Source: Candidatus Latescibacterota bacterium (lineage in GTDB: Bacteria; Latescibacterota; UBA2968; UBA8231). From it: 64,000 nucleotides of DNA. Made by a program: the position numbers and the translations under genes. The stretch lies in NCBI GenBank assembly GCA_965197905.1, contig CBDAOB010000005.1:928001-992000 (forward strand). Direction: 5' to 3'. How positions within the stretch are numbered: position 1 is the stretch's first letter; each line of letters begins with the position of its first letter. A model generated the notes under the pieces. It saw only the letters and a list, made by a program, of their open reading frames with translations. It did not search any database and was not told the DNA's origin. Positions 35,007 through 55,595 of this stretch are shown here, piece by piece.

Positions 35007-36164
35007 ATGCCTTCAATCGCCGGCGTTGAGTTCCGTCGGTTCTCCGCCCGTCACCACAACGCTACACGCAACTGGCTCGTTGTGAAATTGAACACCGACG
35101 ATTCAGCACTCTTTGGCCTGGGTGACGCGAGCGCCATGGAGGACGACGACAAGGTTCTGCAACTGGTGCAGCGCTTTGTCGAAGAGTATCTGGTGGGGCA
35201 GGACCCGCTGGACCACGAACGGCACTGGACCACCCTCTATCACGACCCCCATTCACGCGGCGGCCGGCTGGCCGCCAGCGCCCTGTCGGGCATCGACATC
35301 GCCCTGTGGGATCTCAAGGGCAAGATTCACGGAAGCCCGGTCTACCAGCTTCTGGGCGGGGCTCAACGGCAGCAGATCCGGGTCTATGCCAACGGCTGGT
35401 ACACCAACCCTGGCACGCCAGAGCAGAACGCCGAGGAGGCCCGCACGGTTGTGGAGATGGGCTACACGGCGATGAAGTTCGATCCGTTCGGCCAGGAGAA
35501 CTATTACAAGATCTCGCTGGGCGAGGCACAGCTCGCCGAAGACCGGGTGGCGGCCGTGCGCGCTGCAGTGGGTCCCGAGGTCGACATCCTCGTCGAAGCC
35601 CACGCCAAGTTCAACGTTATGACGGCGATTCAGCTGGGCAAACGTCTTGAGTCATACCGCCCCCTATGGTACGAGGAGCCGGTGTCCGAGGAGAATCTGT
35701 CCGAGCTGCTGGAGGTGCGGCGGAAGGTGGACATACCGATCGCCACGGGGGAGCGACTCTACAGCAAATTCCCGTTTGCTCAGATAGTCGAGGCGCATGC
35801 GGCTGACGTGCTGCAGCCGGACGTTGCCAACGCTGGCGGCGTGACCGAACTCAAGAAGATCGCCGCCATCGCGGAGGCCAAACATATAACCGTGGCGCCA
35901 CACAATGTCTGCTCACCGGTGGGAGCCATGGCCGAGATGCACCTGTGCGCATCTATTGTCAACTTCGAGATTCTGGAGTACCACGCGGAGTTCTACGACA
36001 GCCACTACTTCGATGTTTTCCAGGGGTTCCCGCGCCAGCGGGATGGCCACGTCGAACTGAGCCCCGCCCCGGGATTGGGTCTAACCCTGGACGAGGATGT
36101 GATCGTCGCCCATCCGCCCATGGCCAGCACCACGGCCCGCGGAGGCACGACTCGAGGGATCTAG
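35007..36164 (+). CDS. Mandelate racemase/enolase superfamily, galactonate-dehydratase-like
   Basis: SGIDIALWDLKGK, YANGW, AMKFDP, EAH, EEP, ATGER, QPD, PHN and PGLG. Confidence 0.85.
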   Translation: MPSIAGVEFRRFSARHHNATRNWLVVKLNTDDSALFGLGDASAMEDDDKVLQLVQRFVEEYLVGQDPLDHERHWTTLYHDPHSRGGRLAASALSGIDIALWDLKGKIHGSPVYQLLGGAQRQQIRVYANGWYTNPGTPEQNAEEARTVVEMGYTAMKFDPFGQENYYKISLGEAQLAEDRVAAVRAAVGPEVDILVEAHAKFNVMTAIQLGKRLESYRPLWYEEPVSEENLSELLEVRRKVDIPIATGERLYSKFPFAQIVEAHAADVLQPDVANAGGVTELKKIAAIAEAKHITVAPHNVCSPVGAMAEMHLCASIVNFEILEYHAEFYDSHYFDVFQGFPRQRDGHVELSPAPGLGLTLDEDVIVAHPPMASTTARGGTTRGI

Positions 36165-36313
36165 CCGACGCTGGCGAGCCGCCGACCAGATCGGCGACGA
36201 CCGTCGCACGAGCGGATCCTTCACCCACAATTTCCTGTGCCTGCAGGATACCGCATTCTATGAGGTGGATCGGTAGCCAGTGCCGATCGCCCGCTGCTTT
36301 CCCAGCCCAATTA

Positions 36314-37540
36314 CTAGCGCGAGCGGCTTTCGATCTCGATCGTTATGCCTGCTCGGCGCAGTCGTTCGACCAATGGCATGCCCAGTGCGGTTGCAGGCGT
36401 GAGAATGCCACCACGGTCTGGACCGCCCGGGAGATCGTCGCGTTGGCCAGCAAGGGCCAGGGCTGCTTCGCATACCATCTTGACGGTGCCGCGGTTTCCA
36501 GGATCGCCACGGTCTTCAATAAGGGCCCAAACCTTCGATCCGTCGGTTCCGGTCCCGACGAACCGACAACGGAAGAATCCCGCGTCCATTTCGCGCTCGG
36601 AAGGGCCCGACCCCGGCTTCGGGGCCAACACTTCTGTCAGTTCTACAGCACCTGGGACCTGGGAGTAGACCTGGTAGAATGCTATGCTCGAGGCCAGCAC
36701 GGAGGCGGAGAGCCAGGGGACAGGGCCACCTACCTCTGCATATTCTTGATAGCAAAAATTCGGACCGTAACCCTCGTGCCACTGTTGAAAGAGGGCAGCG
36801 CTACGCCGGACAACGCGCGTATTGACGGGCCCCATTACGAACGGACCAACCCAGGATCCGAGGTCGCTGTCGTATGCCGGTGCCACGGGGTCGCGTTGGT
36901 CCCCAGATTTTGTACCGGTATGGTCAGGATTGAGCAGAAAGGGGTCTCGCATACGGGATCCCTGCCCGGAGCGTTGAATATTCAGTACCGAGGCTGCGGT
37001 CCCACCGTTCAGTCCTCCCGACGTCGCGATGAAGGCTTTAACCTGCTGGCAGGCTTGCCCGAGACGCTTGGATTCGTCCGCAATCATGAGCGTTCCAAGA
37101 TCCGACGGTACGGAATCGAAACCGCAGAAGTGTACGATTTTTGTAGCCGATGAAACGGCCGTCTCGTGATAGCGGTCGATCATATCTCGCGCCCAGGTTG
37201 TCTCACCCGTGATATCAACATAATCGGTCTGGTTTCTGACGCATGCGCTGACAACCGGTTCACCGTGCAGAGCGAAAGGTCCTGCCGTAGTGAGAATTAC
37301 GCGAGTTCGCTCTGCCATGCGATCGATGGCAGGGCCGTCCTGGCTTGCAGCGACTGCGACTTCGACATCCGTGGGAAGCTGGAGGTCCGTCTTGAGCGCG
37401 GCGAGCTTCTTTTCGTCGCGCCCCGCTAGCGCCCAACGCAGGTCAGGAGTAGCGTGGTCCCGCAGGTAGGCTGCCGCTTGTCGGCCAGTGAAGCCGGTGG
37501 CGCCGTACAGCGTCAGGTCGAGGTTACGAATTTTGGGCAC
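36314..37540 (-). CDS. Saccharopine-dehydrogenase-like NADP oxidoreductase (trans-acting enoyl reductase family)
   Basis: YGATGFTG, LAGR, AGPF, YVDITGE, CGFDSVPSDLG, SGG..GGT, DPG and GGILTPA. Confidence 0.88.
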   Translation of the reverse strand: MPKIRNLDLTLYGATGFTGRQAAAYLRDHATPDLRWALAGRDEKKLAALKTDLQLPTDVEVAVAASQDGPAIDRMAERTRVILTTAGPFALHGEPVVSACVRNQTDYVDITGETTWARDMIDRYHETAVSSATKIVHFCGFDSVPSDLGTLMIADESKRLGQACQQVKAFIATSGGLNGGTAASVLNIQRSGQGSRMRDPFLLNPDHTGTKSGDQRDPVAPAYDSDLGSWVGPFVMGPVNTRVVRRSAALFQQWHEGYGPNFCYQEYAEVGGPVPWLSASVLASSIAFYQVYSQVPGAVELTEVLAPKPGSGPSEREMDAGFFRCRFVGTGTDGSKVWALIEDRGDPGNRGTVKMVCEAALALAGQRDDLPGGPDRGGILTPATALGMPLVERLRRAGITIEIESRSR

Positions 37541-37577
37541 TTAGCAGATATCTCCGACACAAGCCCCGAAGCGACTT

Positions 37578-38390
37578 TCAGTGTTCGATCGCCATGCCAG
37601 GCTTTGGTTTCCTGGCGCACACAAGCAAGCATTTGCGGATTGCCCAGCTCAAGTTGATGTTGGCCGCAAGCAGGTCGCGCATAGCGAACGGGTTCCACCA
37701 CCGCGACGGATCCTGTTGCACAAATCTGTTGAAACGATCGCGGTATGCGTGCCAGGTCTCTGTGGTTGCGTCGCTGAGATCGGGGTTTCCGAATCCCGCA
37801 TCTCTCAGTAAGTCTCCGTAGCGGCCGGCATTGGGCACGTAGTTTTGCGCAGGGACCAGCGGTGTTCCCCATGCCATCAGAAGATCGGACAGGACTAAAC
37901 AGCCGCCGGGCCTTAACACGCGAAAGGTTTCTTCTAAGAAACGCTTCCGAGTGGAGAAATGAAAGGCAGCTTCGATGCACAGAACCGTGTCGAAGGTTTC
38001 GTCGTCGAAGTCGAGCTTGGTAGCGTCCATTCGCTTGAAAGTGCATCCCGGTGCACGCTTCCGCGCCTCCACCAATTGTGATTCCGAAAGACCAATCCCG
38101 GTGATAGCCGCCGGTTGGAAGTAGTTCATCAATCGCCTGGTGCTGGCTCCCTGACCACACGCGACGTCCAGGATCGTTCCCCTGAGGGGCTCAATCGGTT
38201 CGAGAAGCATGTCCACGAGTCGATCGCCAGCTTCTCTGGCACAACGCGTGGCGCCGTCCCAATATCCGAAATTGGCGTATCCGCTGTCACCGCAAAACTC
38301 GCGGAGAATCGGGTCGGAAAAGACCGCATCGTAGTACAGTGACAGTGCAGTCGAAGTTGCCGGAGAATCGTTTTCAGTTGTAGTGGACAT
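37578..38390 (-). CDS. Class I SAM-dependent methyltransferase (sterol/tocopherol/RebM-like subtype)
   Basis: YYD, ANFGYW, LDVACGQG, GLSESQ, MDA..L.F.D..FD, IEAAFHF and RVLRPGG. Confidence 0.88.
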   Translation of the reverse strand: MSTTTENDSPATSTALSLYYDAVFSDPILREFCGDSGYANFGYWDGATRCAREAGDRLVDMLLEPIEPLRGTILDVACGQGASTRRLMNYFQPAAITGIGLSESQLVEARKRAPGCTFKRMDATKLDFDDETFDTVLCIEAAFHFSTRKRFLEETFRVLRPGGCLVLSDLLMAWGTPLVPAQNYVPNAGRYGDLLRDAGFGNPDLSDATTETWHAYRDRFNRFVQQDPSRWWNPFAMRDLLAANINLSWAIRKCLLVCARKPKPGMAIEH

Positions 38391-38444
38391 CGGCGGTATC
38401 TCTAGCAGGTGGCCCAGATTATAAAGAACTAAGATTGGGCAAGG

Positions 38445-39892
38445 TCACCGCATTGGTGTTCTCAATTCGGATCGCCACAGTTCGGCTGCAACCCGAGTCT
38501 GTTTGCTGTTAACCTCGGACCACCATCCAAGCAGCCATTCACGGTCACGTGCGAATCCGTTCAGCGTTGAAAGCTGCCAGAATCCGTAGTCGAGGGCCCG
38601 ACCGAAGAGGTCGGGAAACGTTCGAGTCGACGAGATATCGAAGAGATCCATCCAGAACTGCGGTGGATGTGACAGCGACTTCACCAGGACATCTGGAGTG
38701 AAGCTCTGACGGAACGGGACCAGATCGCTAACACTCCACCGACGCGCCAGGCGTAGTTGGGATCCTTATCGGCCGTCTTGCAGACTACCTTGAGGGCGTC
38801 CATCCAAACACGCAGCAGGTGGCGATTTCGGGCAAAGGACACAAGCAGATCTGCGACCCCGAAGTCCGGATCGAATTTCTGCCTCCATCTGCCTTCGTAA
38901 GCTCGGAGTGTCCTGCGACTGAAATCTCCTCGGTCGAAGGCATCGCTGATCGTCTCCCTAGCCAGCGTCGCGTTCTCCAATGCAGGAGCAATTCCTTCTC
39001 CTGAGAGGGGATCGACAAAGCAGCCTGCTTCGCCGACGAGCAGACCGCGTTCAAAGTAGTTGGTTCGCGCTCCGCCGTAGGTCTTGATCGGCCAACCAAC
39101 CGGTTTCTCGATTTCGCAACGCCAGCCTTGTTCAGCGGCCCAGTTTTGGAGCCGCTTTGAAAGTCTTCCGAAAAAGTCGTGGAGCTTCAGATCGAATCTC
39201 TTGACCGATTCAGCCACCATACCCACACCGATATTGGCTAGCCCGTCCGAGATCGGGTAGACCCAGCCGAAGCCGGGAAAAAAATCTTCCTCAAACCAGA
39301 GCATCGACTCGCGCAACGGTAGTCCGTGGCAGTACGCCCGCATCGCGAACTCAACGAATCGCTCATCAGTCATCGCCAGACCGGCTCTTCTGGCAACGAC
39401 AGAATGAGCGCCATCAGCGCCGACGACCAGACGGGCGGAGTACTGGCGTTGTGTGCCAGATTCCAGGGCGGTCAGAGTCGCCGAATCGCTGTCTATCTCC
39501 AGATCGCGGACAGTGCAGTTCTCGACAGTGGTGGCACCGGCTTCCTGCGCCCGCCGAAAAATGATCTCGTCGAGTACGACGCGCGGTACAGCATGATAGT
39601 AGTCGATAGTATTAGCACGAGGAGGAATGCCGCCTTTGGCGAGCCATTTCCCGTTTAGGGCAGTACGGGCACGCCTCAATGGTAGAAGCTTACGCCGAGC
39701 GATTGCTTCAAAGCACCCGAGTTCGTCGAGTAGCATGAGGCCTTTAGCGCTAACAATGTCACCGCAAACTTTGTCTCTAGGGAAGGATTTCTTCTCCAAA
39801 AGCAACACGTTTTGCCCAATCGCAGCGAGACGGATAGCAAGGCTGCTACCCGCAGGACCGGCACCTACAATCGCTACATCGAACGTCGTCAT
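38445..39892 (-). CDS. Geranylgeranyl-reductase-family FAD oxidoreductase; 1-nt frameshift near 38725 (482 aa if corrected)
   Basis: DVAIVGAGPAG, FPRDKVCGD, VGADGAHS, GFGWVYP..ANIGVG and GEAGCFVDPLSGEGI; the alternate frame continues LVPFRQSFTPDVLVKSLSHPP into ORF 38445-38684. Confidence 0.85.
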
Positions 39893-39974
39893 TCTGTTGT
39901 TTCGCAACAAAGCCGCATCGCCGCCGGGAACCGACTTCGGAGATACCGAAAGGGACGCGGTGCAGTGGACATCA

Positions 39975-41909
39975 TCATGGATTCCGTACACGAACGACAA
40001 CACAAGTCATGTCGTCGGCCTGATCTACCCCACCCGCAAACTCCCGCACGCTGTGTAACAAGCGGTCACAGATGTCGCCAGCGGAAATCCCTGCCAGATG
40101 ACCTTCGGAGATCGTCCCCCACGTCCGCTTCTCGCCGAAGAACTCGCCGCTCTTGTTCAGCGCTTCCGAGATTCCGTCGGAGTACAGCACCAGACAGTTT
40201 CCAGGCTCTATTGAAATCTCTACGAGATCGTAAGTAACACTAGCCTTAACTCCCAGAGGGTAGAGCTCATTGCCCAGTTCGGTAATGTTGCCGTCTGCTC
40301 TCACCAATAATGGGAAGGGGCAGCCACAGGTAATCAGCTGAAGGCGATTGCTGTCGGTAATGCGTATCATAACGAAACAGACGAAGCGTCGTTTCTCCAG
40401 AGCGCGAAAAAGCGAGTCGTTGAGATTGGCGAACAACCGGGGCAACTGCGGGTTGGTTTGCATTTGGCTGTCGAGCAATCCGGTGAACATTACTGCCGGA
40501 ATTGCCGCTTCCATGGAGTGCCCGGTCACATCGGCCATTCCGACAGCAATCCCATTAGGCGATTCGAAGTATCGGTACATGTCACCACCGACATCCCCAG
40601 CCGGGTGGCAGCGGCCGGCAATGTCGAGCCCCTCTACCGATGGCGCCCTATCCGGCAGGAGTTCAAGTTGCAGGCGTCGGGCGGTGTCCAGTTCGCGATC
40701 CTGAGCCTCTTTAGCGCGTCGCAGGGTGCTAATGCGATTGCCAAGGGCAAGCGACAGCAGAAGGATCTCAAACGCGTGACCGATCTGAAAGGCGTTCCAG
40801 GAGTAAACGCCAAATGGCAGCATACCGAACACGACGGATAACGTGATCAGTGGGCCCAGCACATAGCCGGACCATGCCACGAGGAAATACCGTGCCGGCA
40901 CAAATCCCCGCTTCAGCGTCAAAACGGCAGCAACAATGATGATCAGCCATAATGACCAATTGTAGACCGTGATGTATGCCGGAAAGAACTCCTCATGCAG
41001 CCCCGCCAGAGATGCCACCGGAAAAGCAAAGCTGACGCCGATAAACCATGACATGACCCGGTGGACTCCCGGCGCATGTGCGTGCGTCAGGAGGAATACT
41101 TGCACGAACCTGAGGACAAAGACCAAATATATGGACCCAGTCACAAGTACGTAGCGGTCCCACCCGAATGCTGTTCCTGGCCATAGAAACTCCTGGGCAA
41201 CCCCGTTAAACTGGAGAAAATAGAGGGCTCCTGTGGCGACCATCAGCACATAATAGAGATACACGTTGTCGCGAAGGTACAGAAACAAGACCAGGTTGTA
41301 GATCGCCATTCCAACAATCAAACCATAGTAGGCGCCAAGCGAGATACTTTCCCTGCGAACGTGGGCGGCAAACGCAGACTCGGAATAAAGGCGCTGATGG
41401 ACAAAGAAAACATCCGGGGTGGCGCGGACCATGTATTCCCTCTTCTGTCCGAGCTCTAGCTCCAAACGGACAGCGAAGTGGCGATGTTCTATCTCCAGCT
41501 CGTTGAACGGGACATGCTCGCCGACCTGAACTATCATCCACTCCGATGTGGAATCGTCGCGCCAGTAGACCTCGATACCGAAATGGATACCGGGTCGCAC
41601 TTCGAAGATCCAGTGGCGTTGTTCAGACTCGTTCTGCAATGTGAATCGGGACCACACTGCGCGACGGGTTTGTCCGAGGTGTGGTGACTCCGCCTCGCTG
41701 TCAACGAAACGACGACGAACCTTCTGCGAGTTGACGTCGTCAATGCTCCAAACTCCAGCCGAATCAGGAAGAACTGCCAGGTACTTCCCAAGAATCACTT
41801 CTTCGGTGTCGTCAGTCAGGATCAAAGTGGCCGGCTCCCCTGCAACTGACGCAGCCACGGAAAGGGCAGCGAGTCCGCAGCAGATCGCGAGGCAGTGCCG
41901 GTGTTTCAT
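39975..41909 (-). CDS. 7TM-DISM receptor (7TMR-DISMED2 plus 7TM) fused to PP2C/SpoIIE phosphatase
   Basis: Signal peptide, AVWSRFTLQN, GAYYGLIVGMAIYNL..YLYY, ARYFLVAW, LLSLALGNRI, VGGD, ADVTGH, YSDGISEA and QADDMT. Confidence 0.9.
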   Translation of the reverse strand: MKHRHCLAICCGLAALSVAASVAGEPATLILTDDTEEVILGKYLAVLPDSAGVWSIDDVNSQKVRRRFVDSEAESPHLGQTRRAVWSRFTLQNESEQRHWIFEVRPGIHFGIEVYWRDDSTSEWMIVQVGEHVPFNELEIEHRHFAVRLELELGQKREYMVRATPDVFFVHQRLYSESAFAAHVRRESISLGAYYGLIVGMAIYNLVLFLYLRDNVYLYYVLMVATGALYFLQFNGVAQEFLWPGTAFGWDRYVLVTGSIYLVFVLRFVQVFLLTHAHAPGVHRVMSWFIGVSFAFPVASLAGLHEEFFPAYITVYNWSLWLIIIVAAVLTLKRGFVPARYFLVAWSGYVLGPLITLSVVFGMLPFGVYSWNAFQIGHAFEILLLSLALGNRISTLRRAKEAQDRELDTARRLQLELLPDRAPSVEGLDIAGRCHPAGDVGGDMYRYFESPNGIAVGMADVTGHSMEAAIPAVMFTGLLDSQMQTNPQLPRLFANLNDSLFRALEKRRFVCFVMIRITDSNRLQLITCGCPFPLLVRADGNITELGNELYPLGVKASVTYDLVEISIEPGNCLVLYSDGISEALNKSGEFFGEKRTWGTISEGHLAGISAGDICDRLLHSVREFAGGVDQADDMTCVVVRVRNP

Positions 41910-44572
41910 TAAAATGTGTACGAGAGACGGATGAGGCCGAGGCGGCCGATGCGGGGTGCGAAGATGTACTCGCTGTGGCGGTTGTTAAGCAGGTTCTGTA
42001 TTGAGAGATCGACTCGAAGCTGCCAGGTGGGGAGGTCGGCTCCCGCAATCAGGTCGACCAGGGTGTAGGACTTCACACGTCCGCTGCCGATCACGTCCTG
42101 TATACGGAAGCCACCGGTATAGTGCGCGCGTAAACCGCCATCGAATCCGCGGATGTGATCGCGGTAGTGAAGCCTGATAGTGCCTCTATGACTTGGTGCG
42201 TTCATGGCGATGTCGTCGGGCCACGACGATTTGCGCTTGAACAGGGTCTCACTCAAGTGAGAGTAGTTGCCCGAAAACGTCCAACTCTCGGATGGGTAGT
42301 ATGCGAGACCCAAACCCATGCCCACATGAGAGATGTTGCCGAACTGTCGTGATGACAACAACAATGCTACCGGGTCTCCCTCTCGAGGAGAAACGGTACC
42401 GACAGGTATCGCGGTTATTGCTCCGGCAAGGGCTGCAGCCGCCTCCTCGGACATGAACTGTGCCAGATGGGTCGCCAAATGCGTTGGTTCGAAGAACACA
42501 TTCGGGGTGATAACGTTGAAGACGGAAAAGCGCCTGTTGCGCTCGTAGTAGAGGTTTCCCGAGAGCAGCCAACGACCGGAGAGAACGCCTTTGTACCCGA
42601 TCTCGTAGGTCGTCGTGCGGCGGGAGCGCAGTGGTTCGATATTTTCAACGTCAGAAGGCTTGATTTCTTCGTAGGCGAAGGACTGGATGTTGAATTCCCT
42701 AAGGATCGTCGCACCGTCCGAGTTCGGAGCCGACACCTGTGAGAGATCCACCCCGGAAGCGCCCATGATGGCTACGATAGCTCCCCAGGCCGCACCGGCG
42801 TCGGCTGGGAGTGGGGTTGCCGGCCCTCCTGCGGCAGGAGGTGTAAAAGGGGACGTCATATACAGTCCATCCACGCCTCCTTGTTCATCGCGGCGGTAGT
42901 TGAAGCCATCGTCGGCAGGAACTCCAAGGATGCGTGTTGCGTAGGGATTTGTTATCGACGCTGGCAACAGGACAAAATCTGAGAAGATTTCCGCTACCGG
43001 CGGCGTTTCAAAGGCGCGGTTAAAAGTAACCCTCAGCGTATGATTGACGGCCGGACGGTAGACGAAAGCTGCCCTTGGGGACAGCACGGGATCCGGAAGA
43101 TGGCTGTTGTGATCGAGTCGAGCTGTCGCCAGCAGTCTCACTTGAGATGTGATGTCCGTGACCGACTGAAGGTAGATACCGCCTTCGTCCAGCCGATCGT
43201 CTTTCTCATTGCGGCCGTACAACGTGCCGTCAGAATCAGGTTCGGTGCGCAGTAGGTCGAGACCGTAGTCAAAACGCTGACGCCCGTCGATAAATGTAGA
43301 GCTATGCTGGACTTGAGCTACGACCTGCGTCGAGTTGTCAATGATCACGTTGCCAGTGCGCAAGAGACGAGAGTCGCCAGCATCCCCCTTATTGACGAAT
43401 ATCTGCGCGAACCAGTCACGATAGTACAGGCGGCCCTGCAAATATGCCGTTCGCCATCCGTCCAGCTGGGCGGCTCCAGTAGGGTTAAGGGCAACTTGGT
43501 CACTACTAACCAGGCCACCAGACATGACAGCCGTGATGTCAGCTGTCGGTTTGAAATCGACCCGGGCATCGACGTTCAACCGGCGCGTGTCATAGTCACG
43601 GCTGTTGTCGACAGATTCCGTCAGCTGCTTGCGTCCATCAGGTGTATCTTTGCCGATGGTTAGCGAGTCTGGTTCATTGGGATCATCAAACGGCCAGTCA
43701 GTGCCCTCGTGGAGGCGGGCAGAAATCTTGTAACCCAAGGTCTTGTTGCGTACTCCTGCGTGACGAATACCCAGCACGTGCTGGTCACGTTCTCCCAGGC
43801 CGACGTTGACGGTTGTCCCCTGAGAATCGTACGGTGATCGGGTTATGTAATGAACAATTCCCCCGGCCGCGTTGGGACCATAAAGAGCCGACCCTGGGCC
43901 CTCCAGGACCTCAATGCGCTCGAGATCGCCATCGTTGAATGAGACCAATTCTGGGTTGTTGAGACGTAAGCCAGGCAGGTTGGCAATGCGTCTGTCGGCC
44001 AGCGTCATCAATCTCGCCGAAAACAGCTGATTGAAACCTCGGACACCCCAGCGCGAACCGCTGATGCCGGTGCGAATAATATCGACGGCCGGTAAACCCT
44101 GCAGATGCTCGATCGGGCTCATCGCCGGTCGCGTGCTGATCTCGCTACGCCCAACTGTGCTGATTGCCGCCGGGGCATCGATCACCCGCTCCGTACGCCG
44201 GGATGCGGACACTGTGATCGGGTTGAGGGGAATCGAGCCAGGAGTCAACGTGAAATCGATCTTGTGCGACGATGATTCCAGAGGGTCTAAGTCTGGCTTC
44301 ACGGCCGGGTCGAAGCCGACATACGATACGCGCAGGGTGCAGCCGCCCGCGGGCAGGTCGACCAGTATGTAGCTGCCGTCCAGGGAGCTAGTCGTACCGT
44401 GTATCTCCGAACCGCACGAGGCAGCGATGTTGGCGCCGGGAAGCACCTCACCGGAGGCAGCATCTCGTACGGTGCCCCGAAGTTCGACGCCTTCTGCGGC
44501 GGATACAGAGAGTAGCCAGGCGAACGACGCCAGGGCCTTAACACACAATTTCCTGATTTTGGTACTTAGCAT
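41909..44572 (-). CDS. TonB-dependent receptor with carboxypeptidase-regulatory-like N-domain
   Basis: GTVRDAASGEVLPGANI, TVSASR, LERIEVLEGPGSALYGPNAAGGIVHYIT, SPR, QNLLN and C-terminal YTF; stop overlaps the next start (TAATG). Confidence 0.92.
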   Translation of the reverse strand: MLSTKIRKLCVKALASFAWLLSVSAAEGVELRGTVRDAASGEVLPGANIAASCGSEIHGTTSSLDGSYILVDLPAGGCTLRVSYVGFDPAVKPDLDPLESSSHKIDFTLTPGSIPLNPITVSASRRTERVIDAPAAISTVGRSEISTRPAMSPIEHLQGLPAVDIIRTGISGSRWGVRGFNQLFSARLMTLADRRIANLPGLRLNNPELVSFNDGDLERIEVLEGPGSALYGPNAAGGIVHYITRSPYDSQGTTVNVGLGERDQHVLGIRHAGVRNKTLGYKISARLHEGTDWPFDDPNEPDSLTIGKDTPDGRKQLTESVDNSRDYDTRRLNVDARVDFKPTADITAVMSGGLVSSDQVALNPTGAAQLDGWRTAYLQGRLYYRDWFAQIFVNKGDAGDSRLLRTGNVIIDNSTQVVAQVQHSSTFIDGRQRFDYGLDLLRTEPDSDGTLYGRNEKDDRLDEGGIYLQSVTDITSQVRLLATARLDHNSHLPDPVLSPRAAFVYRPAVNHTLRVTFNRAFETPPVAEIFSDFVLLPASITNPYATRILGVPADDGFNYRRDEQGGVDGLYMTSPFTPPAAGGPATPLPADAGAAWGAIVAIMGASGVDLSQVSAPNSDGATILREFNIQSFAYEEIKPSDVENIEPLRSRRTTTYEIGYKGVLSGRWLLSGNLYYERNRRFSVFNVITPNVFFEPTHLATHLAQFMSEEAAAALAGAITAIPVGTVSPREGDPVALLLSSRQFGNISHVGMGLGLAYYPSESWTFSGNYSHLSETLFKRKSSWPDDIAMNAPSHRGTIRLHYRDHIRGFDGGLRAHYTGGFRIQDVIGSGRVKSYTLVDLIAGADLPTWQLRVDLSIQNLLNNRHSEYIFAPRIGRLGLIRLSYTF

Positions 44573-44582
44573 AGTTACGTCC

Positions 44583-44604
44583 TTTTGTGATCCAGATCAC
44601 ATTT
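44583..44604. promoter_or_regulatory. Near-consensus CRP-family binding site
   Basis: Minus strand AAATGTGATCTGGATCACAAAA versus the classical CRP consensus AAATGTGATCTAGATCACATTT; core at 44586-44601, adjoining the RBS of the TonB receptor. Confidence 0.75.
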
Positions 44605-44721
44605 TGCAGATTTCATGTATATGGAATGTGACGGAACTATGCAACTGTGAATCCTGTATCGGCATTGCCTGAACGCTTTGCAGAACGGCATTGTACCCGG
44701 CGGCCAGCTGTGGAAAATGGG

Positions 44722-44773
44722 TTCCCCGGCAAAAAAACGGGCATCGGCCAAGACCGCCTGGGGGGCCGGGGAA
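44722..44773 (-). terminator. Possible terminator hairpin after the FAD oxidoreductase
   Basis: TTCCCCGGC/GCCGGGGAA inverted repeat enclosing a GC-rich segment and a T7 run on the minus strand, about 20 nt after the stop at 44795. Confidence 0.4.
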
Positions 44774-44794
44774 TGACCGCGGAATCATCCGCCA

Positions 44795-46924: not shown

Positions 46925-46974
46925 TCAGGATGGTCTTCCTGCGGGCGGCGGTGTTGCCTCTTCCATGTGAAGGG

Positions 46975-49776
46975 TCAAGCATCCTTTTTAGGAAAGAACA
47001 GCAACTGGGCTTTGTTTTCCACGTCCAACATGCCGCGGAACACCCTCATCTCTTCAGGGATCGAGTCAAAGGAGTCTCCCCTTAGGTGGAACGGCGGGGG
47101 CATCACGCGGAAACGGGGACGATGCCGAGTCTCCCGGTCGGTCCAGTTCAGCCACCTGTTACTTAGCAAGTACTCGATCGCAAGCTGAGGTTCTAATTCT
47201 TCATTCTTGAGGCGATCGATAAGCCTGACAACCGACGGTCTCTGACCCTCGGCGAGCCAATCCTTTACCCAAACAGAAAGGTTTCGGGGGATCCTCAAAT
47301 CAGTACGGGCGTTTTTCATTTTTTTGTCGATGTGCTCGAGGAGGTCTAGATTCGTCTTGATATCAGCGAAAAAATCGGGAGGGTCTTGGTCGCACGGTTG
47401 CACGTCGTCAACTGACATATCAAACTGGCCCGTAGTGACCCCCGATTGTTGTACTATCAGATTTTCACTGTCCAAGTCGGTCTCGTCGATAACGCTCGAC
47501 TCGGTGTTGCCCACATTGCTCCAGATCTCACAGCCTCGCTCCAGGTCTAGCCGTAGCTGCATGGAAAAAGGACGCACCGGTTCCAGGATGGCCAGGTCGT
47601 CTTCTTCGTGGCGGGTGAGCAGCCCAAGCGTATCGAGGATCGGTTGTCCCTTTGTGCGACGGATATCAATGCGAACGGGTTCGCTATCGAATTCCCATAT
47701 GCGACGCACATGCTTGATCAGCATGGGAGTACGGATAATTGCCTGGTAACAAGCCCGCTCCGGCTGTTCGGCATCGCGGAACTGCTTAACGGAGAATTCG
47801 GGCACTGATTTTCCATTGGCCAATGGTTCCATTCCGAGCGCTACAAGTGCCTTGACCTTACCCTTGCAGTTCTTATATAACCCGACCTTACGTTTAAGTT
47901 CGGTTCTAAGAGTGTCCTCCCATTTAAATGCTTCTGGCTGACCACGCTTCGAATTCTTTACGGTGGTGATTTCCAGGAGGCGTTGAGGGCGCCGCTCTTG
48001 GCTCTGCCCAATAGCATCTAGCATGGGAACGTCCACCCGAAGTAGCCTTTCTGGATTTTGGTCAGTCTCGCTGTCAAGCAACCAGTTCCGACGATCTGAC
48101 TTGATCGCGCACTGTATGGTTGGCCAGCCGAATATCTCGCGACCGATCGCAGTGCCGATCTCAGTGTCACTATACGTAAAGGGTGAAACCAACCCAATGG
48201 TCTCTAGTGTGTTGTTTGATTTGCGATAACACTTCACAGGAATCGAAAAACGTACCTCGTGTTGTGCCCACTGTCCTATGTTCACTGTTCGGGACCGAAC
48301 CTCAGTGAAATTGATAGCTAGAAGGTAAACGTATCGTCCGAATGGCTTGAAAACGTATTTGTCTTGACCGTCCAATCCGACTGGTAGCAATGGCTCATCT
48401 TGCTTGTGTGCCTCATTTAAATACTTGTCGACGAACTTCCTCAGCTTCTTCGGATCTGCCTGCAGCGGCATGACTCGGACGAGAGCGTTTGGGAATCGAA
48501 AGGGCGGTAGTATGCTCAGAACTGCGGCACCGCGGGCTGTATTGAAGGGATTCCCAATTTTCCGCCGCTTATTGTGAACGCTCTCTATTAGACGTTTACC
48601 TGATTTTTCCACGAAGTGATGCCAATTGCTGCGTCGCGTTCGCCAGGCGAGATTTTCTCCTCGTGTGTATCGCATGTCCACCTCGGCCCAAAAGGGGAAC
48701 TCAGGAGTAATCACTTGGACACGGTCATCGCCCGAGCGCTTGTCCTGGGATTCGATTCCGAGTTCCTGGACGATCGGGATGTTCGGGTACCGATGCAGAA
48801 GGACCCTGAAGCCTCCACTCCGATCGCCCGTAAGGAGGTTCTCTCCTCCTAGGAGGCCGCCCCTGTGAAAGCATTTGAGTTCCATCCGCGAACGGATCAA
48901 CGCCTGGTAGCAAACTGCGTTCGGGTTCTCCGCGTCGCGGAACTGCTTGAGGTTGACGGTATCGGCGGTAGGCGCCGCCAATTGCTGCATCTGTTGCATC
49001 ATGGCCTGGAGACGAACGGGCATGCGCAGCAAATCCAGTGGTTCAAAACCTCTAGCAGGCAATGCTGCCGCAATCTCCGTCAACCGAGCCCAACTTTCCA
49101 TTGCAGAAAGCATTATCTCGCTGATGCCGGAAATGGGGTTGAAGGGAGAGCGCAGATCGGGCGGAATACGAAATGGCATGCTTGGCTGCTCGTAGTCGAT
49201 TTCAAGGACGATGCGGCGTTCGCGTGTCTGGCCCCCAAAAGCCTCTGGAAAGACGTAAGATTCGAGCTTTATTAGCGGATGTTGGCGCACGTCGGGTGCC
49301 CTTGCATACGGATCGAACTTGGCGTGCCAACCCTGCACCTTGGGCCAACCGTATACCTCGCGACCGGTTGCCTGTGAAGCGTCGTCGTCAACGAAGATGA
49401 AAGGTGATACGGAAGCGGGGCCGATGTACACTTCGCGGCCATCTTCAACACGGAACCAGTCGAGTAAAACGGAGAAAACGACCTCGTTCTGAGATACCCA
49501 GCCGGCTGTGCGCATCTCCGGCGTCATCTCTGGATAATGGATGGCGCTCAGCAATACGTAGGGGATCGCTGGGCGGAAACAGGCGATTTCGGGTGGTACT
49601 AGGTTGAGGTAATCGTCGCAGAAATCGCGAAGCCTGTTCATGGATGCGCGCAAAGGGTAGAAGCGCAGCATGGCACCTCGAAATTCGTACGGTGGCGTTG
49701 ATACGAGTGACGCCCATCTGCGGGCCATGTTGTAGTGGGGTTGATCTGGGACTTCGACGATTCGACGGCGATTCAA
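46975..49776 (-). CDS. Tandem two-domain acetoacetate-decarboxylase-fold (ADC-like) protein
   Basis: Domain 1 has SQNEVVF..PFIFVD..GREVYGWPK..LKQFRDA; domain 2 has AQHEVRF..GREIFGWPT..VKQFRDA. Confidence 0.7.
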   Translation of the reverse strand: MNRRRIVEVPDQPHYNMARRWASLVSTPPYEFRGAMLRFYPLRASMNRLRDFCDDYLNLVPPEIACFRPAIPYVLLSAIHYPEMTPEMRTAGWVSQNEVVFSVLLDWFRVEDGREVYIGPASVSPFIFVDDDASQATGREVYGWPKVQGWHAKFDPYARAPDVRQHPLIKLESYVFPEAFGGQTRERRIVLEIDYEQPSMPFRIPPDLRSPFNPISGISEIMLSAMESWARLTEIAAALPARGFEPLDLLRMPVRLQAMMQQMQQLAAPTADTVNLKQFRDAENPNAVCYQALIRSRMELKCFHRGGLLGGENLLTGDRSGGFRVLLHRYPNIPIVQELGIESQDKRSGDDRVQVITPEFPFWAEVDMRYTRGENLAWRTRRSNWHHFVEKSGKRLIESVHNKRRKIGNPFNTARGAAVLSILPPFRFPNALVRVMPLQADPKKLRKFVDKYLNEAHKQDEPLLPVGLDGQDKYVFKPFGRYVYLLAINFTEVRSRTVNIGQWAQHEVRFSIPVKCYRKSNNTLETIGLVSPFTYSDTEIGTAIGREIFGWPTIQCAIKSDRRNWLLDSETDQNPERLLRVDVPMLDAIGQSQERRPQRLLEITTVKNSKRGQPEAFKWEDTLRTELKRKVGLYKNCKGKVKALVALGMEPLANGKSVPEFSVKQFRDAEQPERACYQAIIRTPMLIKHVRRIWEFDSEPVRIDIRRTKGQPILDTLGLLTRHEEDDLAILEPVRPFSMQLRLDLERGCEIWSNVGNTESSVIDETDLDSENLIVQQSGVTTGQFDMSVDDVQPCDQDPPDFFADIKTNLDLLEHIDKKMKNARTDLRIPRNLSVWVKDWLAEGQRPSVVRLIDRLKNEELEPQLAIEYLLSNRWLNWTDRETRHRPRFRVMPPPFHLRGDSFDSIPEEMRVFRGMLDVENKAQLLFFPKKDA

Positions 49777-52413
49777 ATTCCGTTCTCTCCGCTTACCGGC
49801 TTGTTTGGGGAGACGCCGCTCGGGATCACCCAGTTGGTGCCAAGAAGCGCCTGAATCGCCGAATGCGGATCACACTCTACGGCATCGATGGCATCTCTAG
49901 GCTTCATGCAGTGATTTGGCTCATTCTCGTGCCAATCCCTGCAGTATTGCTCTCGGCGTTCGTCATCCTGCCAGAAATCGGCGCCACCTTCAGACTCGCG
50001 TCGCGTTAGCATGTCACCACCAACGTGAATGTTTTCTGAGTCGGTGAAGTAGCCTTTCCATTCATTCTCCGCAGGGGTACCTGGGTGATTCGCCAACAAC
50101 CGCGGTCCACAGATTCTGCGCCGTGTCAATTCGCACATTGGCACGGAACCAGAAAGGAGTTTCTGCCTGGAGAATATAGTAGCTGCCTTCGGAAGAAGTC
50201 TCCTCCAGCTTAGCCCGAAGACCCAGCATCTCCACGATGGGTTGCCCCGCAATCTTGTGAATCCGCAAGTGCAAATCCTCCTTGATTTTGTGTAGCGAAA
50301 ACAAGCGCTCGAAAACTTGTGGAACGCGCACAATGCACTGATAGCAGGCGCCAGTTGGTTCGGCAGCATCACGGAATTGTTTGAGCGTGAATTCGTTCAA
50401 ACATTTCTGGTTTACCAGAGTCTCCAAGCCAAGGGCCATCAAATTCTTGAGCGGGGTTTTGGCATCAGCGGGTGCGTTATCGGGACAAGGCACCGCACTT
50501 TTGTCCCAATATCCGGCTTCGGTTTCGGTCTTGGGAAAGGGTGCAGGGCAATTGTCCCCCCAATATTTGGCTTCGGTCTCCATCTTAGGCGGTCCGACCG
50601 AATCAACTATCTTCCCCTCATAGATCTCGAGCAGGCGAAGGTGACGCTCTTCCTGTCCCATGAACAGCGCAGACATAGCCGGAGCGTCAAGCTTGAGTAG
50701 ACCCTGGCCTTTGTCTGGGTCAGGACCTCCGCGTTCCAGCCATTTATTTGCCGGCGCGTAGATCTGGCTCCTTAGAACTGGCAAGCCGTAGAGTTCACGT
50801 GCCGTTACTGCAGTGATTTCGTTGTCCGAGAATACGAAGGGCGAGATTACCCCCGCCGAAACGGGCTTCTTATCTGAGTGCATATGATCGAATAGCTTAA
50901 CGGGGACCGAAAAACGAACCTGGAGGCCGGAATAATGACCAATGTCGTCTCTCCGCGAATGTGCCTGTTGGGTACTCCAGACTATCAGATAGACGAATTT
51001 GCCAAAAGCACGAAATTGGTACCTCTCCTGATTCTCCAGATGATTGAAACGGCGGTCGACGAAATCTTGCAGTTGGCCAGGGTGTGCCAGCAGTGGCAAC
51101 ACTCGGATCGTCGTATCTGGCAGGTGGAATGGACCCGGGAGTGATATAATGGCGGCGCCCCTGGCGGTGTCGTACAAGTGCCCGTAGTGCTCCACCGCAT
51201 AGGCGGCGGTATCATTCTTCTTAAGTTTGGGCAAAGCACCCTTGGGTTGGGCAGGCACCAACCAGCCATCTGTGGCTTTGGATCGCCAGCACAGGTTCTC
51301 TCCTTTGGAATAGGTGAGATCGACATCTACCCAGAACGGGTAGTCTGGCCGCATCAAAGCGACGGGCACCCCGTCGCCTGCTTCTTCATGGCCAACCTCG
51401 ATGCCCAAGCTATCAATGATCGGGAGGTTTGGGTACTTGTGGATGCGTACGAAGTAACCGCCGGTTGAATCACCTCGCATCAAATTCGTGTCGCCGAGCA
51501 TCCCCCCTTGGTTGAAGCGCGATAGAGAAATCTGCGAGTTGACAAGGGCCTGGTAGCAAACCTCCTCCGGGTTTTCTGCGTCACGGAACTGTTTGAGATT
51601 GATCGAATTTCCAGAGGCCGGCTTGAGGGTGGCAAACCCCCGCATCGTGCGTAGTAGCTCGATCGGAATTTGAGGCCATCCTTGGGTTTCATATCCGCGA
51701 CCCGGGAAGGACATCAACATGTCGAGAACATGTGCGTTCCACGCTAGCATGCTGGACGCGGCTTTCGTGCATGCGCCAAAGGGATTGCTCGGTGACTCCC
51801 AGTTAGGAGGAATCTGGGTAAGGGTCACGTCGGGATCCTTCTCGATCTCGAGAAACGTCGCCGTTTCCATAGGTACACCGGTGTATACCTCAGAGAATAC
51901 ACGGGTGCCGACGCTGGTGATCTTGTGGGGAGTGAGTGGTTTTCCTGGCCAGGAATCGATGTGAACCGGCCAACCCTGCATTTTTGGCCAACCGTAAACC
52001 TCGCGGCCGGTCATTTGAGACGAATCTTGATCGACGAAGATGAAGGGAGAAAAGGAGGCAGAACCTTGGTAGACGTACTTGCCATGGATCTTGCGGTACC
52101 GGTCAAGGAAAACGGAGAAGACGATCTCGTGCTGGGACAGCCAGCCGGCGTTACGCGCATCCATCGCAATGCGGTCGTAATGCACGAGCTGCAGGAAGAC
52201 GTATGGTAGGGAAGGCCTGAACTGGGCAATTTCAGGAGGGATAATGTTGAGGTATGCATCGCAGAATCGCCGCAACTGGTCGAGGCGGGCGCGAAGCGGC
52301 AGAAACCAGATGGTGACACCACTGAAGGTGTATGGCGGCGCCGAAGTCTGTGTTGCCGCGCCGCGCGCCATGTTGTACTTAGGCAGATTGATGATGCGAC
52401 CTTGCACGTTCAT
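49773..52413 (-). CDS. Tandem two-domain ADC-like protein, paralogue of 46975-49776; frameshift near 50083 (879 aa if corrected)
   Basis: SQHEIVF..GREVYGWPK..LKQFRDA and ARELYGLPV..LKQFRDA. The alternate-frame tail DPHSAIQALLGTNW matches the paralogue EPQLAIEYLLSNRW and ends in a TTGA overlap with the next gene. Confidence 0.7.
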
Positions 52414-53447
52414 TGGCGCCGATCCAGCATCCAGGTGGTCAGCTCGCGAATGAACTCGAGATCTCGCGATTCGGGCAGGGAACCGAACATGCGTTGGAAT
52501 TCGTGTTGTGCAGCCCCCGCCATGCCGCGGGCTATCTGACGCGCGTATTCGATGCAACCATAATCTTCCATCCGTTGGCGGATCCAGCGGACGTCATCCT
52601 CCGTCCGATCTCCTTGATCGTCCCCAAGTATGGAATCGAGCCGGTCGATTTCCCTGGGGGTGGATAGTGAGAAGAGGCGAATCAGCATCAACGTTCGTTT
52701 GCCTTCGCGAATGTCTCCATCAATTTCCTTCCCGTAGGCTTCATCACCAACTAGATTCAGAATGTCGTCCTGTATCTGGAATGCAGCACCTAGGAAAAAT
52801 CCGAAGTGGATGAAACCGTCCAGATCAACCCGGTCCCTGGTTCCGATGAGGGCGCCAACACGGGTGGGGTATATAGACAACAGCCAGCACGTCTTTTTGA
52901 GGACCATCTCGAGGTACTGAGCATCATCCAACACGACCGTGTTGTCGCGGCGCCAGCCCAGTTCCATGGCTTGGCCTTCCGCTGATTCACGTGCCATGCG
53001 TTCGGTTTCTTCGAGGATGCGCATTGACAGGAACGGTCCCAACTGAGATCGGTTTTCTATCAACGGGCGGAGGCTCATCAGCGCTAACCCGTCGCCAACA
53101 TTGATTGCCATCGGAACGCCGGCAAGGCGATGAAGCGTAGGTTTCCCGCGGCGTTCCTCGCTACCGTCTTGGATGTCATCGTGGATTAGGAGCGCGTTAT
53201 GGAGCAACTCGATGGAAACGGCGGACCGCAGCGCGTCATTGAGGGTAGCGCCAAAGGCGCGAGCGGTTGCGATGCAGAGGGAGGGACGCAGCATCTTGCC
53301 GCCCCGCCCAGGGTAGTCAGCGAGCAGGTCGTAGAGGTGGCGCCGTGGTTCTTTGCGTGGCAGATATTCCGAAAGTGCTGTGCGTGTGGCCTCGCCGTAC
53401 TCCTCCAAGATCTCGGCGATCAGAGGTCGCGACGAGGTTGCAGTCAT
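52410..53447 (-). CDS. Polyprenyl diphosphate synthase (trans-IDS, GGPP-synthase-like)
   Basis: GGKMLRP, HDDIQDGSEERRGKPT, AINVGD, GQAMEL, KKT, FQIQDDILN and DIREGKRT. Confidence 0.93.
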   Translation of the reverse strand: MTATSSRPLIAEILEEYGEATRTALSEYLPRKEPRRHLYDLLADYPGRGGKMLRPSLCIATARAFGATLNDALRSAVSIELLHNALLIHDDIQDGSEERRGKPTLHRLAGVPMAINVGDGLALMSLRPLIENRSQLGPFLSMRILEETERMARESAEGQAMELGWRRDNTVVLDDAQYLEMVLKKTCWLLSIYPTRVGALIGTRDRVDLDGFIHFGFFLGAAFQIQDDILNLVGDEAYGKEIDGDIREGKRTLMLIRLFSLSTPREIDRLDSILGDDQGDRTEDDVRWIRQRMEDYGCIEYARQIARGMAGAAQHEFQRMFGSLPESRDLEFIRELTTWMLDRRQ

Positions 53448-54150
53448 GCGGAGGGCTCGGTCTCGGGCTCCTCGGAATCGGGGATTTCAACGTCAAGCGT
53501 CCCCGAAGCTGCCGATTGGCGCGATCGTAAATGAGCGCCGAGTAAAAACCGGCAGGTTGATCGTTGGGCACCTCGATGCGGACCGCTGCGGGGCGCCCAC
53601 GTTCAGGCGGGAAGCAGGTGACGTCAAGTGCTAACTTATCTGAATCTTTATCACACAAAGGTGGAACGAACAATTCTTCGGATCCGCTGGTGCCTTCTTC
53701 GAAATCCAACGAGAGGCGGACGTGAACCTCCGAGGCAACCTCGACGTTGAGCGGAACCGTTCCTGACGCGACATCTCCATTTTGGCCGTTGGCAGGCCAC
53801 CCGCTGTCGAATGGCTTTCCAGCCATCGCTCCACTCATAGCTTCGAACCAGCGGGTCGTCAGGTCGACGAAGGAGCGCGCCATACCATCTGCGGTCGAGC
53901 GCATGTTATCGGTGCCCGTGTTCGCGCCCGTCCCGAAAAAGGAACCGCCAAATTGCTCTGCCATTCGACGTCCTTCGCGGATTTGCGAATCGATAAGTTC
54001 GTACCCCAGGCGTACACTGTTCTCGATCGCCTGTTGCCAGTCATTGCCTGCGCCGGAACCGCCGTCCCAGGCGGGGCCATGGCCATCAGTCCAGTTGCGG
54101 CGCGGTGCAGAACGCTCCGGGTCTTCGCGATGTATTCGATCGTCTTCCAT
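53444..54150 (-). CDS. Hypothetical protein (helical N-terminus, beta-rich C-terminus); probable 1-nt frameshift in G4 near 53502 (235 aa if corrected)
   Basis: Adding one G gives ...LRGTLDVEIPDSEEPETEPSA* ending in an ATGA overlap with the prenyltransferase, instead of a 131-nt overlap. Confidence 0.65.
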
Positions 54151-54166
54151 CGGAGTCGCTTGTCCT

Positions 54167-54469
54167 CTAACTCTTATCCAGCGCAGACATCATTTCTTCC
54201 ACAAGCTCATCGTTGTTCGCGATCTCTTTCAGCTGCTTTAGTTGCTGCGACAGATCTTCCTTGAGGTTCGCCCGTCGAGTTCTCTTCTTCACCTCCCTCA
54301 ACAATAACGACAAAGCATCGGTCTCAATCGAGCCGCTCTCGTACGAGTTGGTTTGATCTACATCGCTACCACTATCCCGACTGGGCGAGGCCATCTCATA
54401 AGGCAGGCGCCACCAGCGGTCCATCATTTCAGCCCACACCATCCAGGGACTTCCGCTTCTCTGACCCAT
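54167..54469 (-). CDS. Small hypothetical helical protein, first gene of the isoprenoid operon
   Basis: 100-aa ORF with a GAGG RBS, 16 nt upstream of the next gene. Confidence 0.6.
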   Translation of the reverse strand: MGQRSGSPWMVWAEMMDRWWRLPYEMASPSRDSGSDVDQTNSYESGSIETDALSLLLREVKKRTRRANLKEDLSQQLKQLKEIANNDELVEEMMSALDKS

Positions 54470-54743
54470 GTTCTCGACCTCTCGGCTTAAGGTTGGTTAT
54501 GCGTTCGCCTCGCAGGGTACCGAAGCCGTGCTTAAGATAATGCGCGACTCCTCTGAACCCAAGACGTTTTAGTGTCTAATATGCAACATAGGAACCTGAC
54601 TGCTCGGTTGCAATCAGACACGCAAGAGAGGGCAGTTTCACGGCAAACAGGTGGCGGATGCGCGATCGGACATGCGCTACGGTGTCTTCGGCGACATGAA
54701 GCCCCGGGGCATGTCCCTGAGGGGGAGGGGCGATCGACAGCTG

Positions 54744-55400: not shown

Positions 55401-55595
55401 CTCGTTTCATCTCCAGGCACCCGCCAGATTACCTTAAGTGCAGATTCACCACGTATGCCCCCATCGCTCATCGACAGAGGACCAACAATCTCCTACGGAA
55501 AATAGGACTTGACAATCAGCAAGGGTAATTCACATAATATGCACTTAAGGGCCATTAGTGCAATATATACCCATTTATGCAGGGAGAAATCAGAT

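Follow-up and report, generated by a model that had tools for sequence, protein, structure and literature searches.

A candidate sensor-linked module for a polyprenyl-derived lipid on an 18.6-kb island of a Latescibacterota bacterium

Introduction

What is a prenyl diphosphate synthase for when none of the genes around it encodes an enzyme of the kinds that usually use up prenyl diphosphates? This question is raised by 11 genes at positions 36314-54469 of the window, a 64,000-nucleotide stretch (positions 928,001 to 992,000, contig CBDAOB010000005.1, here C5) of the genome of a Candidatus Latescibacterota bacterium (assembly GCA_965197905.1; 6.69 Mb, five contigs, 91% complete). A previous interpretation made from the letters without database searches, here called the sequence-only reading, had taken the genes for one isoprenoid system with non-canonical coupling or cyclising enzymes. 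We now favor, with a probability of about 0.55, the reading that they belong to a horizontally spread, sensor-linked module whose product is a polyprenyl-derived lipid or a lipophilic signal. As judged from the predicted proteins, the product is probably an oxidised or reduced polyprenyl-derived lipid longer than C20. Solving the module would reveal isoprenoid chemistry that is new or else a new route of lipid tailoring in trans, and it could also yield a first ligand or target for STAND-cyclase sensors, which are widespread in bacteria.

Results

The 11 genes form one island

The description of the genes as 11 co-oriented members of named families was confirmed by profile scans and by the coordinates listed in Table 1. 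They are transcribed from the minus strand in the order hyp1, hyp2, the trans-isoprenyl diphosphate synthase (IDS), ADC1, ADC2, a 709-aa flavoprotein, a TonB receptor, a 7TM-DISM/PP2C protein, a geranylgeranyl-reductase-family (GGR) flavoprotein, a methyltransferase, and a saccharopine-dehydrogenase-like reductase. Overlaps occur at four junctions (hyp2/IDS, IDS/ADC1, frame of the ADC1 tail/ADC2, and TonB receptor/DISM), and the remaining junctions are gaps of 16 to 222 nt. The claimed absence of phytoene or squalene synthase, terpene cyclase, and UbiA from the cluster held as well, as none of the 11 island proteins matched these families in the profile scans.

Table 1. Features of the island; positions refer to the window.
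Feature	Coordinates	Strand	Remarks
Whole island, 18.6 kb	36163..54740	.	Empty site in related contigs
Saccharopine-dehydrogenase-like NAD(P) reductase	36314..37540	-	PF03435; one of several interchangeable module reductases
S-Adenosylmethionine (SAM) methyltransferase, MitM-like	37578..38390	-	Orthologues in other loci
GGR-family flavoprotein	38445..39892	-	Assembled frame stops at 38681; homologous tail in other frame to 38445
7TM-DISM sensor fused to PP2C/SpoIIE phosphatase	39975..41909	-	Shared with G015 only
TonB-dependent receptor, accessory	41909..44572	-	Nearer host paralogue (41%) than receptors of other loci
Core flavoprotein, 709 aa, phytoene-desaturase-like fold, large helical insertion	44795..46924	-	Structure model pLDDT 90
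ADC2, 933 aa, tandem ADC-type domains	46975..49776	-	PF06314 45.3 bits, cut-off 29.8
ADC1 out-of-frame continuation, variable C-terminal tail	49773..50090	-	Stop overlaps ADC2 start
ADC1, 783 aa, tandem ADC-type domains	50062..52413	-	PF06314 25.3 bits, below cut-off 29.8
IDS, Thermus/archaeal-type clade	52410..53447	-	PF00348 E 3e-55, 187.5 bits; motifs intact
hyp2, conserved core hypothetical	53317..54150 as assembled	-	Two long helices and small beta domain; frameshifted near 53491
hyp1, 100-aa hypothetical	54167..54469	-	Not conserved

Contigs of four public runs (X1 to X4; two samples, two studies) were aligned to positions 36000-55000 and covered the island near-identically. In runs X1 and X4, which come from two studies, further contigs joined position 36162 to 54740 (X1) and position 36163 to 54743 (X4) with 30 and 33 other letters in between, each joint being represented by one contig at depths of 2 and 7. 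These contigs are ~90% identical to the island flanks and read as related organisms without the island. The 11 genes, all of which are real, constitute a single unit, as the related contigs skip the whole 18.6 kb. The island was gained or lost as a whole, a gain here being indistinguishable from a loss in the relatives. Its GC content is 0.567 compared to 0.596 in the left 20 kb. No terminal repeats were found at the island ends, promoter and terminator counts within the island were at shuffle level, and the empty site was not seen in the 1.5-kb flanks examined in genomes G001 and G002. Among 168 genomes of the phylum, 2 were found to have the synthase, and among 61 relatives, 2 have the flavoprotein; the second carrier was genome G015 both times.

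Flavoprotein, hyp2, and IDS form the conserved core

Two sets of loci were analyzed. The flavoprotein-anchored set contained the best 80 of 302 relatives in species genomes, including 42 full-length loci of at least 20 kb, and the synthase-anchored set contained metagenome loci, namely, the best 80 of at least 504 matches, with 28 loci of at least 10 kb. In the 80 flavoprotein-anchored loci, many of which are incomplete, IDS was found in 74, hyp2 in 69, ADC in 53, and a STAND ATPase in 47. The 42 full loci contained IDS in all cases, hyp2 in 39, a STAND gene in 36, an NAD(P) reductase of either of two types in 36, ADC in 31 (one by profile only), and FadL in 5. When the synthase served as anchor, hyp2 was present in 77 of the 80 loci, the flavoprotein in 58, and ADC in 57, and 49 of the 52 loci having 1.5 kb upstream contained the flavoprotein. 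The corresponding numbers for the 28 longer loci were 28 for hyp2, 26 for the flavoprotein, 24 for ADC, and 19 for STAND. Given the co-occurrence from both anchors, we rejected the reading of the core genes as chance neighbors. The core of the module is the flavoprotein, whose fold resembles that of phytoene desaturase (PDS), together with hyp2 and the intact trans-prenyl synthase. Pairwise identities track those of the flavoprotein (rho 0.42 for IDS, 0.33 for hyp2, 0.48 for ADC, and 0.32 for the STAND cyclase; 0 of 499 permutations each), with shared ancestry contributing.

The sequence-only reading had named a failure of the genes to co-occur elsewhere as one possible disproof, and for the core the counts given above show the opposite. 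Its assumption that all 11 genes constitute one conserved system did not survive, as the 80 genome loci contained a TonB receptor in 3, a methyltransferase in 3, a GGR gene in 1, and a 7TM-DISM phosphatase in 0 cases.

The genome loci, which we placed from record titles, presumably belong to Myxococcota, alpha-, beta-, and gammaproteobacteria, Acidobacteriota, Nitrospirota, Binatia, Gemmatimonadota, Chloroflexota, and Margulisiibacteriota; plasmid loci add Mycobacterium and Rufibacter. Cultured carriers with an ADC gene are Rhodopila globiformis DSM 161, Methylotetracoccus oryzae C50C1, and Minicystis rosea DSM 24000, and Archangium violaceum Cb vi76 is a cultured carrier without ADC nearby. 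Fusions of the flavoprotein to ADC, of the flavoprotein to a methyltransferase, and of a reductase to an aminotransferase link steps of the module.

Two plasmid loci contain other pairings of a synthase with a flavoprotein. An operon of Ruegeria sp. THAF33 (L098:4856-13020) encodes a synthase of the same clade together with a STAND cyclase, a family 1 encapsulin, a DUF3237 protein, and a 717-aa flavoprotein different from the core one, and may represent a sister module, perhaps an encapsulated one. In Streptomyces globisporus (L102:8088-13527), a distant polyprenyl synthase and a flavoprotein gene are accompanied by a DUF2236 gene.

The synthase is intact and probably makes a long chain

The closest solved relative of the island IDS is 1WMW, and the geranylgeranyl diphosphate (GGPP) synthases of Thermus and archaea are nearest. 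Residues D90, D91, D94, R99, R100, K51, R54, K185, T186, D227, and D228, which form two Asp-rich motifs and the RR, GKxxR, and KT motifs, were invariant in 41 of 41 sequences. Because the catalytic motifs and those for binding of isopentenyl diphosphate (IPP) are kept and GGPP synthases of this type are closest, the predicted protein qualifies as a chain-elongating enzyme. Short-chain type I GGPP synthases are marked by a bulky residue at position -5 relative to the first Asp-rich motif. At this position all 41 sequences have Ala, compared to W, Y, and F in 1WMW, 1WY0, and 5JFQ; by this rule, the enzyme would fall outside the short-chain type I group and its product is probably C25 or longer. 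IDS scored below every NCBIfam equivalog cut-off. The host possesses two more prenyl synthases with housekeeping roles, the island IDS being an extra copy.

The structure model of hyp2 gave no fold match (best Z score 5.1, on a single helix; best E value 0.3), and in the Atlas hyp2 matched only unnamed clusters. The hyp2 gene in its true form probably ends near position 53444, overlapping the start of IDS. For hyp1 we found no match in 84 loci and no alignment to the open reading frame (ORF) at the same position in G015.

The core flavoprotein has a PDS-like fold

In both fold searches the top match of the flavoprotein model was 5MOG, the rice phytoene desaturase (Foldseek E value 1.5e-18; Z score 26.0, root mean square deviation 2.9, 443 aligned residues). 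The kinship with PDS is one of fold only, since the protein reached 20.9 bits with TIGR02731, whose cut-off is 569.4. Its best NCBIfam match was HpnE (TIGR03467), with 48 bits over residues 7-80 only and a cut-off of 283, and a search of its profile against PDB sequences gave no match at an E value of ≤0.01. Residue R331 was invariant in 79 of 79 sequences and has a local context similar to that of Arg300 at the quinone site of rice PDS, to which it may or may not correspond. For PDS, two reports describe a "flavin only" mechanism with a quinone as acceptor (PMC5703498; PMC4492965). The feature neighbors of the flavoprotein include clusters of the HpnE family and of oleate hydratases, and the family has at least 5,049 relatives, the best 120 of which all bear generic names.

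Only the N-terminal ADC-type domain retains the lysine

Two tandem ADC-fold proteins had been proposed, and both are present, with the correction that each contains two ADC-type domains, only the N-terminal one of which has the Schiff-base lysine. The island thus encodes four such domains, the two domains within a protein being homologous (probability 100), and ADC1 and ADC2 are 38% identical. Among the 42 aligned proteins, the lysine was found in the N-terminal domain of all 42 and in the C-terminal domain of none, the latter domain retaining a Glu and a Gly. In one locus (L158:2828-21019), the core is surrounded by three tandem ADC genes, a further ADC gene with a single domain, and a TonB receptor gene. 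A conserved 418-aa protein of no Pfam family, encoded next to the module in myxobacterial loci that lack ADC (L027:5958-7214 and eight other loci), was considered as a hidden ADC and rejected, because it is not ADC-like.

Reductases are interchangeable and tailoring genes occasional

A saccharopine-dehydrogenase-type reductase was found in 23 and an epimerase-type reductase in 14 of the 42 full loci, with both occurring together in 1 locus compared to 7.7 expected. The island reductase had no PDB sequence match at 0.001. In L053:17694-20054 the module reductase is fused to a class III aminotransferase. The interchangeable reductases and this fusion suggest a carbonyl intermediate.

The GGR gene scored 190.6 bits with TIGR02032 (cut-off 158.8) and remained below the cut-offs for MenJ (122 versus 700) and BchP/ChlP (114 versus 343). 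Its orthologues (44-51%) are present in G015, L005, and L159, and distant ones (33-39%) lie beside the synthase in L177, L181, and L182, in whose available DNA no core flavoprotein was found. For the methyltransferase, assigned in the sequence-only reading to a sterol/tocopherol type, the enzyme class was correct and the type is doubtful: its six PDB matches at E values of ≤1e-12 are headed by MitM and natural-product O-methyltransferases and not by named sterol enzymes. In L007, L076, and L080 an orthologue of 46-54% identity directly follows the flavoprotein, and in contig L165 one is fused to it. By predicted function, the methyltransferase and GGR genes are occasional tailoring genes. G015 has orthologues of the island GGR, DISM, and reductase genes beside its core.

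The usual STAND partner is missing from this island

The usual partner of the module is a STAND ATPase/nucleotide cyclase, the cyclase domain being in the same frame as the ATPase in 29 full loci. This link lay beyond what the sequence-only reading could see. The STAND gene is missing from the island, and the host has three STAND-type matches in 6.7 Mb, none of them in the island. The STAND partner is kept in plasmid loci without the synthase, namely, those of Qingshengfaniella (with a flavoprotein-ADC fusion, cyclase, and Crp), Rufibacter, and Azospirillum, and it also occurs in the Ruegeria locus with the same synthase clade, a different flavoprotein, and encapsulin. The annotation of the Catenovulum locus shows no STAND gene.

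The 7TM-DISM phosphatase adjoins the core here and in G015 and in 0 of 160 other loci. In G015 a KAP-family NTPase follows the phosphatase at the cluster edge (L004:6153-9110). Strong TonB receptor matches were found in 5 of the 80 metagenome loci. Because the receptors of other loci match the host paralogue about as well as or better than they match the island receptor, the latter is not their orthologue and would be a functional analogue at most.

Three genes contain frameshifts

Frameshifts occur near positions 53491 (hyp2), 50075 (ADC1), and 38720 (GGR), and each gene continues in another frame. At position 53491 an extra base is present in runs X1 and X3 and not in X2. With the extra base in two of the three covering runs, the break in hyp2 probably stems from an error of the assembly. 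Three runs have a substitution at position 38725 and no indel at the GGR break, and the contig of the fourth run is interrupted at this base. None of the four runs differs from the assembly at the ADC1 break, which costs only the tail, also missing in six relatives, and leaves both ADC domains in place. Systematic long-read errors may be behind the remaining frameshifts, the library type being not on record. With a background of 4 frameshifts in 109 control genes, 0.66 would be expected in the island (17.5 kb), giving P values of 0.03 for three or more and 0.14 for two or more.

Surroundings of the island

An IS256-family transposase gene located 2.5 kb from the island is interrupted: between its two parts (57295-57996 and 59946-60764) lies a gene for a reverse transcriptase/maturase of a group II intron (58248-59921), which scored over the cut-off of TIGR04416. 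To the right of the island (54651-55382), a minus-strand ORF of the FlgD-Ig/Por-tail type (54744-55220) overlaps a plus-strand frame, the last 50 residues of which weakly match the C terminus of a caprolactamase/hydantoinase alpha subunit; this is possibly a gene remnant. A stretch of lower GC content (55509-56870, 60893-61684, and 62582-63439) contains two ORFs without Pfam family and a patatin-like phospholipase gene.

Discussion

A working scheme for the module

Starting from gene content, conservation, boundaries, synthase motifs, the flavoprotein fold, and the ADC lysine pattern, all of which were observed, we infer the following reaction steps. A dedicated prenyl diphosphate, probably of C25 or longer, would be supplied by the additional synthase, which may have hyp2 as its partner. 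The prenyl chain would then be oxidised or desaturated by the PDS-fold flavoprotein, possibly to a carbonyl. Where present, the ADC-fold lysine would form a Schiff base with this carbonyl and make or break a C-C bond, and the NAD(P)H-dependent reductase would reduce the carbonyl or an enone. In the present island, the methyltransferase and the GGR-type reductase would tailor the product by methylation and chain saturation. In most hosts the STAND ATPase with its cyclase or kinase would control the module or sense its product; here the 7TM-DISM phosphatase and the TonB receptor may have been recruited in its place. A bolder version would make the module a self-contained route from prenyl diphosphate to isoprenoid that dispenses with terpene synthase, squalene/phytoene synthase, and UbiA, generates a carbonyl with the flavoprotein, uses the tandem of active and inactive ADC domains for a C-C bond, and yields in many phyla a signal that crosses membranes and is recognised by NLR-like STAND cyclases or, in the present island, by the 7TM-DISM phosphatase. 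We regard this version as unlikely.

Several observations weigh against the favored reading. ADC is missing from 11 of the 42 full loci, mostly myxobacterial ones, and a search of five genomes with an ADC-less locus gave a distant single domain outside the locus in three and no match anywhere in two. The ADC protein is not obligatory for the module, and the proposal that the ADC proteins are its non-canonical coupling or cyclising enzymes is weakened by these numbers. Four plasmids (from Azospirillum, Catenovulum, Qingshengfaniella, and Rufibacter) carry the flavoprotein and ADC without the synthase according to annotation or scan, no ADC being detected in that of Rufibacter, and the synthase also occurs beside other flavoproteins. 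The fold match between the flavoprotein and PDS comes with an identity of only 12-16%, and protoporphyrinogen oxidases follow close behind (Z scores 24.3 and 24.1). The ADC1 and GGR frameshifts are contradicted by no run, the STAND background is known for this host alone, and both locus sets consist of closest matches and include kin, so that counts and P values overstate independence. The scheme assigns no enzyme to the removal or transfer of the diphosphate. Five UbiA-family genes are present in the host genome, and each of 10 further carriers tested has a gene of the squalene/phytoene synthase family PF00494 elsewhere in its genome, so that known enzymes could act in trans.

This last point leads to the strongest alternative, which is nevertheless improbable in our view: the synthase provides a prenyl chain of unusual length to UbiA/MenA or to a squalene/phytoene synthase of the host, and a quinone, a carotenoid-like hydrocarbon, or a membrane lipid then has its side chain customised, through desaturation, saturation, or methylation, by the flavoproteins, the reductase, and the methyltransferase, without new coupling chemistry. 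Such a role in trans would account for the missing diphosphate-removing step and agrees with PDS being the best fold match of the flavoprotein, with MenJ and BchP being the next best models of the GGR gene, and with the UbiA and PF00494 genes just mentioned. However, PF00494 was not found in the host genome (91% complete; 8 of 14 controls matched) or in the single-contig genus mate G002, and 49 of 76 genomes of the family have it regardless of the module. No UbiA or PF00494 member occurred among the 30 representatives of recurring neighbors scanned, and the invariant ADC lysine and the fusions would be left unexplained. Less probable still is a salvage or catabolic function, in which an isoprenoid or other lipophile is imported through the outer membrane, oxidised or hydrated by the flavoprotein, cleaved in a retro-aldol reaction by the ADC lysine, and detected on entry by the sensor. 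FadL-type importers in 7 of 80 genome loci, together with the few TonB receptors there, the flavoprotein-ADC sets without synthase, and the oleate hydratase clusters among the feature neighbors point in this direction, as does the richness of the host in catabolic enzymes; mandelate-racemase-family matches number 42 in its genome and 39-64 in three relatives. Against it stand the presence of a synthase with intact motifs in all full loci, the methyltransferase and GGR genes as typical building enzymes, and the lower Z scores of oleate hydratases (17.4 and 17.0) compared to PDS.

We give little credence to the idea that the core is real elsewhere and the island a decaying composite, with receptor, sensor, and tailoring genes as passengers and a partly broken pathway. 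The excess of frameshifts over expectation (P = 0.03), the absence of the usual STAND partner, the resemblance of the TonB receptor to a host paralogue, and the interrupted IS256 element nearby would fit decay. When the hyp2 frameshift, absent from two of three covering runs, is discounted, however, the P value rises to 0.14, the ADC1 break removes only a tail that is missing in six relatives as well, and the orthologues beside the G015 core as well as the methyltransferase-flavoprotein fusion in L165 argue against mere passengers. Least probable is an anti-phage or stress system in which infection is sensed by a STAND cyclase and a membrane isoprenoid, made or altered by the enzymes, acts as effector. 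STAND-TPR sensors with cyclase domains in most loci and the patchy spread on islands and plasmids are reminiscent of such systems. The island has no STAND gene, a PADLOC scan of 10 island proteins left 9 without match and otherwise gave only partial, generic matches (the methyltransferase to mad2, domains of three cyclases to PycC), and in one plasmid locus a Crp regulator is encoded right behind the cyclase, as in ordinary control by cyclic AMP.

Comparison with known systems

Every part of the module comes from a known superfamily, and the combination is undescribed in the literature searched, in which subscription journals were thinly covered; to this extent the sequence-only reading was right in proposing the system as a candidate for an undescribed one. 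Its view that the cluster fits no carotenoid or hopanoid pathway is likewise supported by the absence of PF00494 from the island and the scores below the TIGR02731 and TIGR03467 cut-offs. The island shares with the plant and cyanobacterial carotenoid route (GGPP synthase, phytoene synthase, and PDS) a trans-prenyl synthase beside a PDS-fold flavoprotein; it differs by having no phytoene synthase, none being found in the host genome either, and by a flavoprotein that is ~240 residues longer than PDS and 12-16% identical to it. The bacterial squalene/hopanoid route consists of HpnC, HpnD, and HpnE. HpnE is the best NCBIfam match of the flavoprotein and its family is among the feature neighbors, but this match is partial, HpnC and HpnD are lacking in the island, and no squalene-hopene cyclase scored over the cut-off in the host genome. 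The Thermus/archaeal-type GGPP synthases (1WMW, 1WY0, and 5JFQ) share the catalytic and IPP-binding motifs with the island IDS and differ from it by their bulky residue in place of Ala.

In the operons for family 2 encapsulins and polyprenyl transferases, too, a prenyl synthase is accompanied by tailoring genes of the epimerase and dehydrogenase types, and according to the accessible part of the report their product is unproven (PMC8346489). That part contains no mention of PDS-like, ADC, or STAND genes; the island has no encapsulin, and its synthase reached 164.7 bits with NF041169, compared to a cut-off of 450. To the ADC-like superfamily (ADC, MppR, and Sbi00515) the module proteins are related by their PF06314 match and by the lysine that aligns to the 4ZBO motif and is invariant in the N-terminal domain, the PDB sequence match of the module ADC being weak (E value 0.078). 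They differ by a size of 730-1470 aa and by the tandem of an active and a lysine-less domain. Residues 114 and 118 of 4ZBO, which we take to be pyruvate-binding, are not kept in the aligned module ADC. That an ADC-type lysine can serve chemistry beyond decarboxylation is illustrated by MppR, as described in a report on this enzyme (10.1101/2023.03.21.533663).

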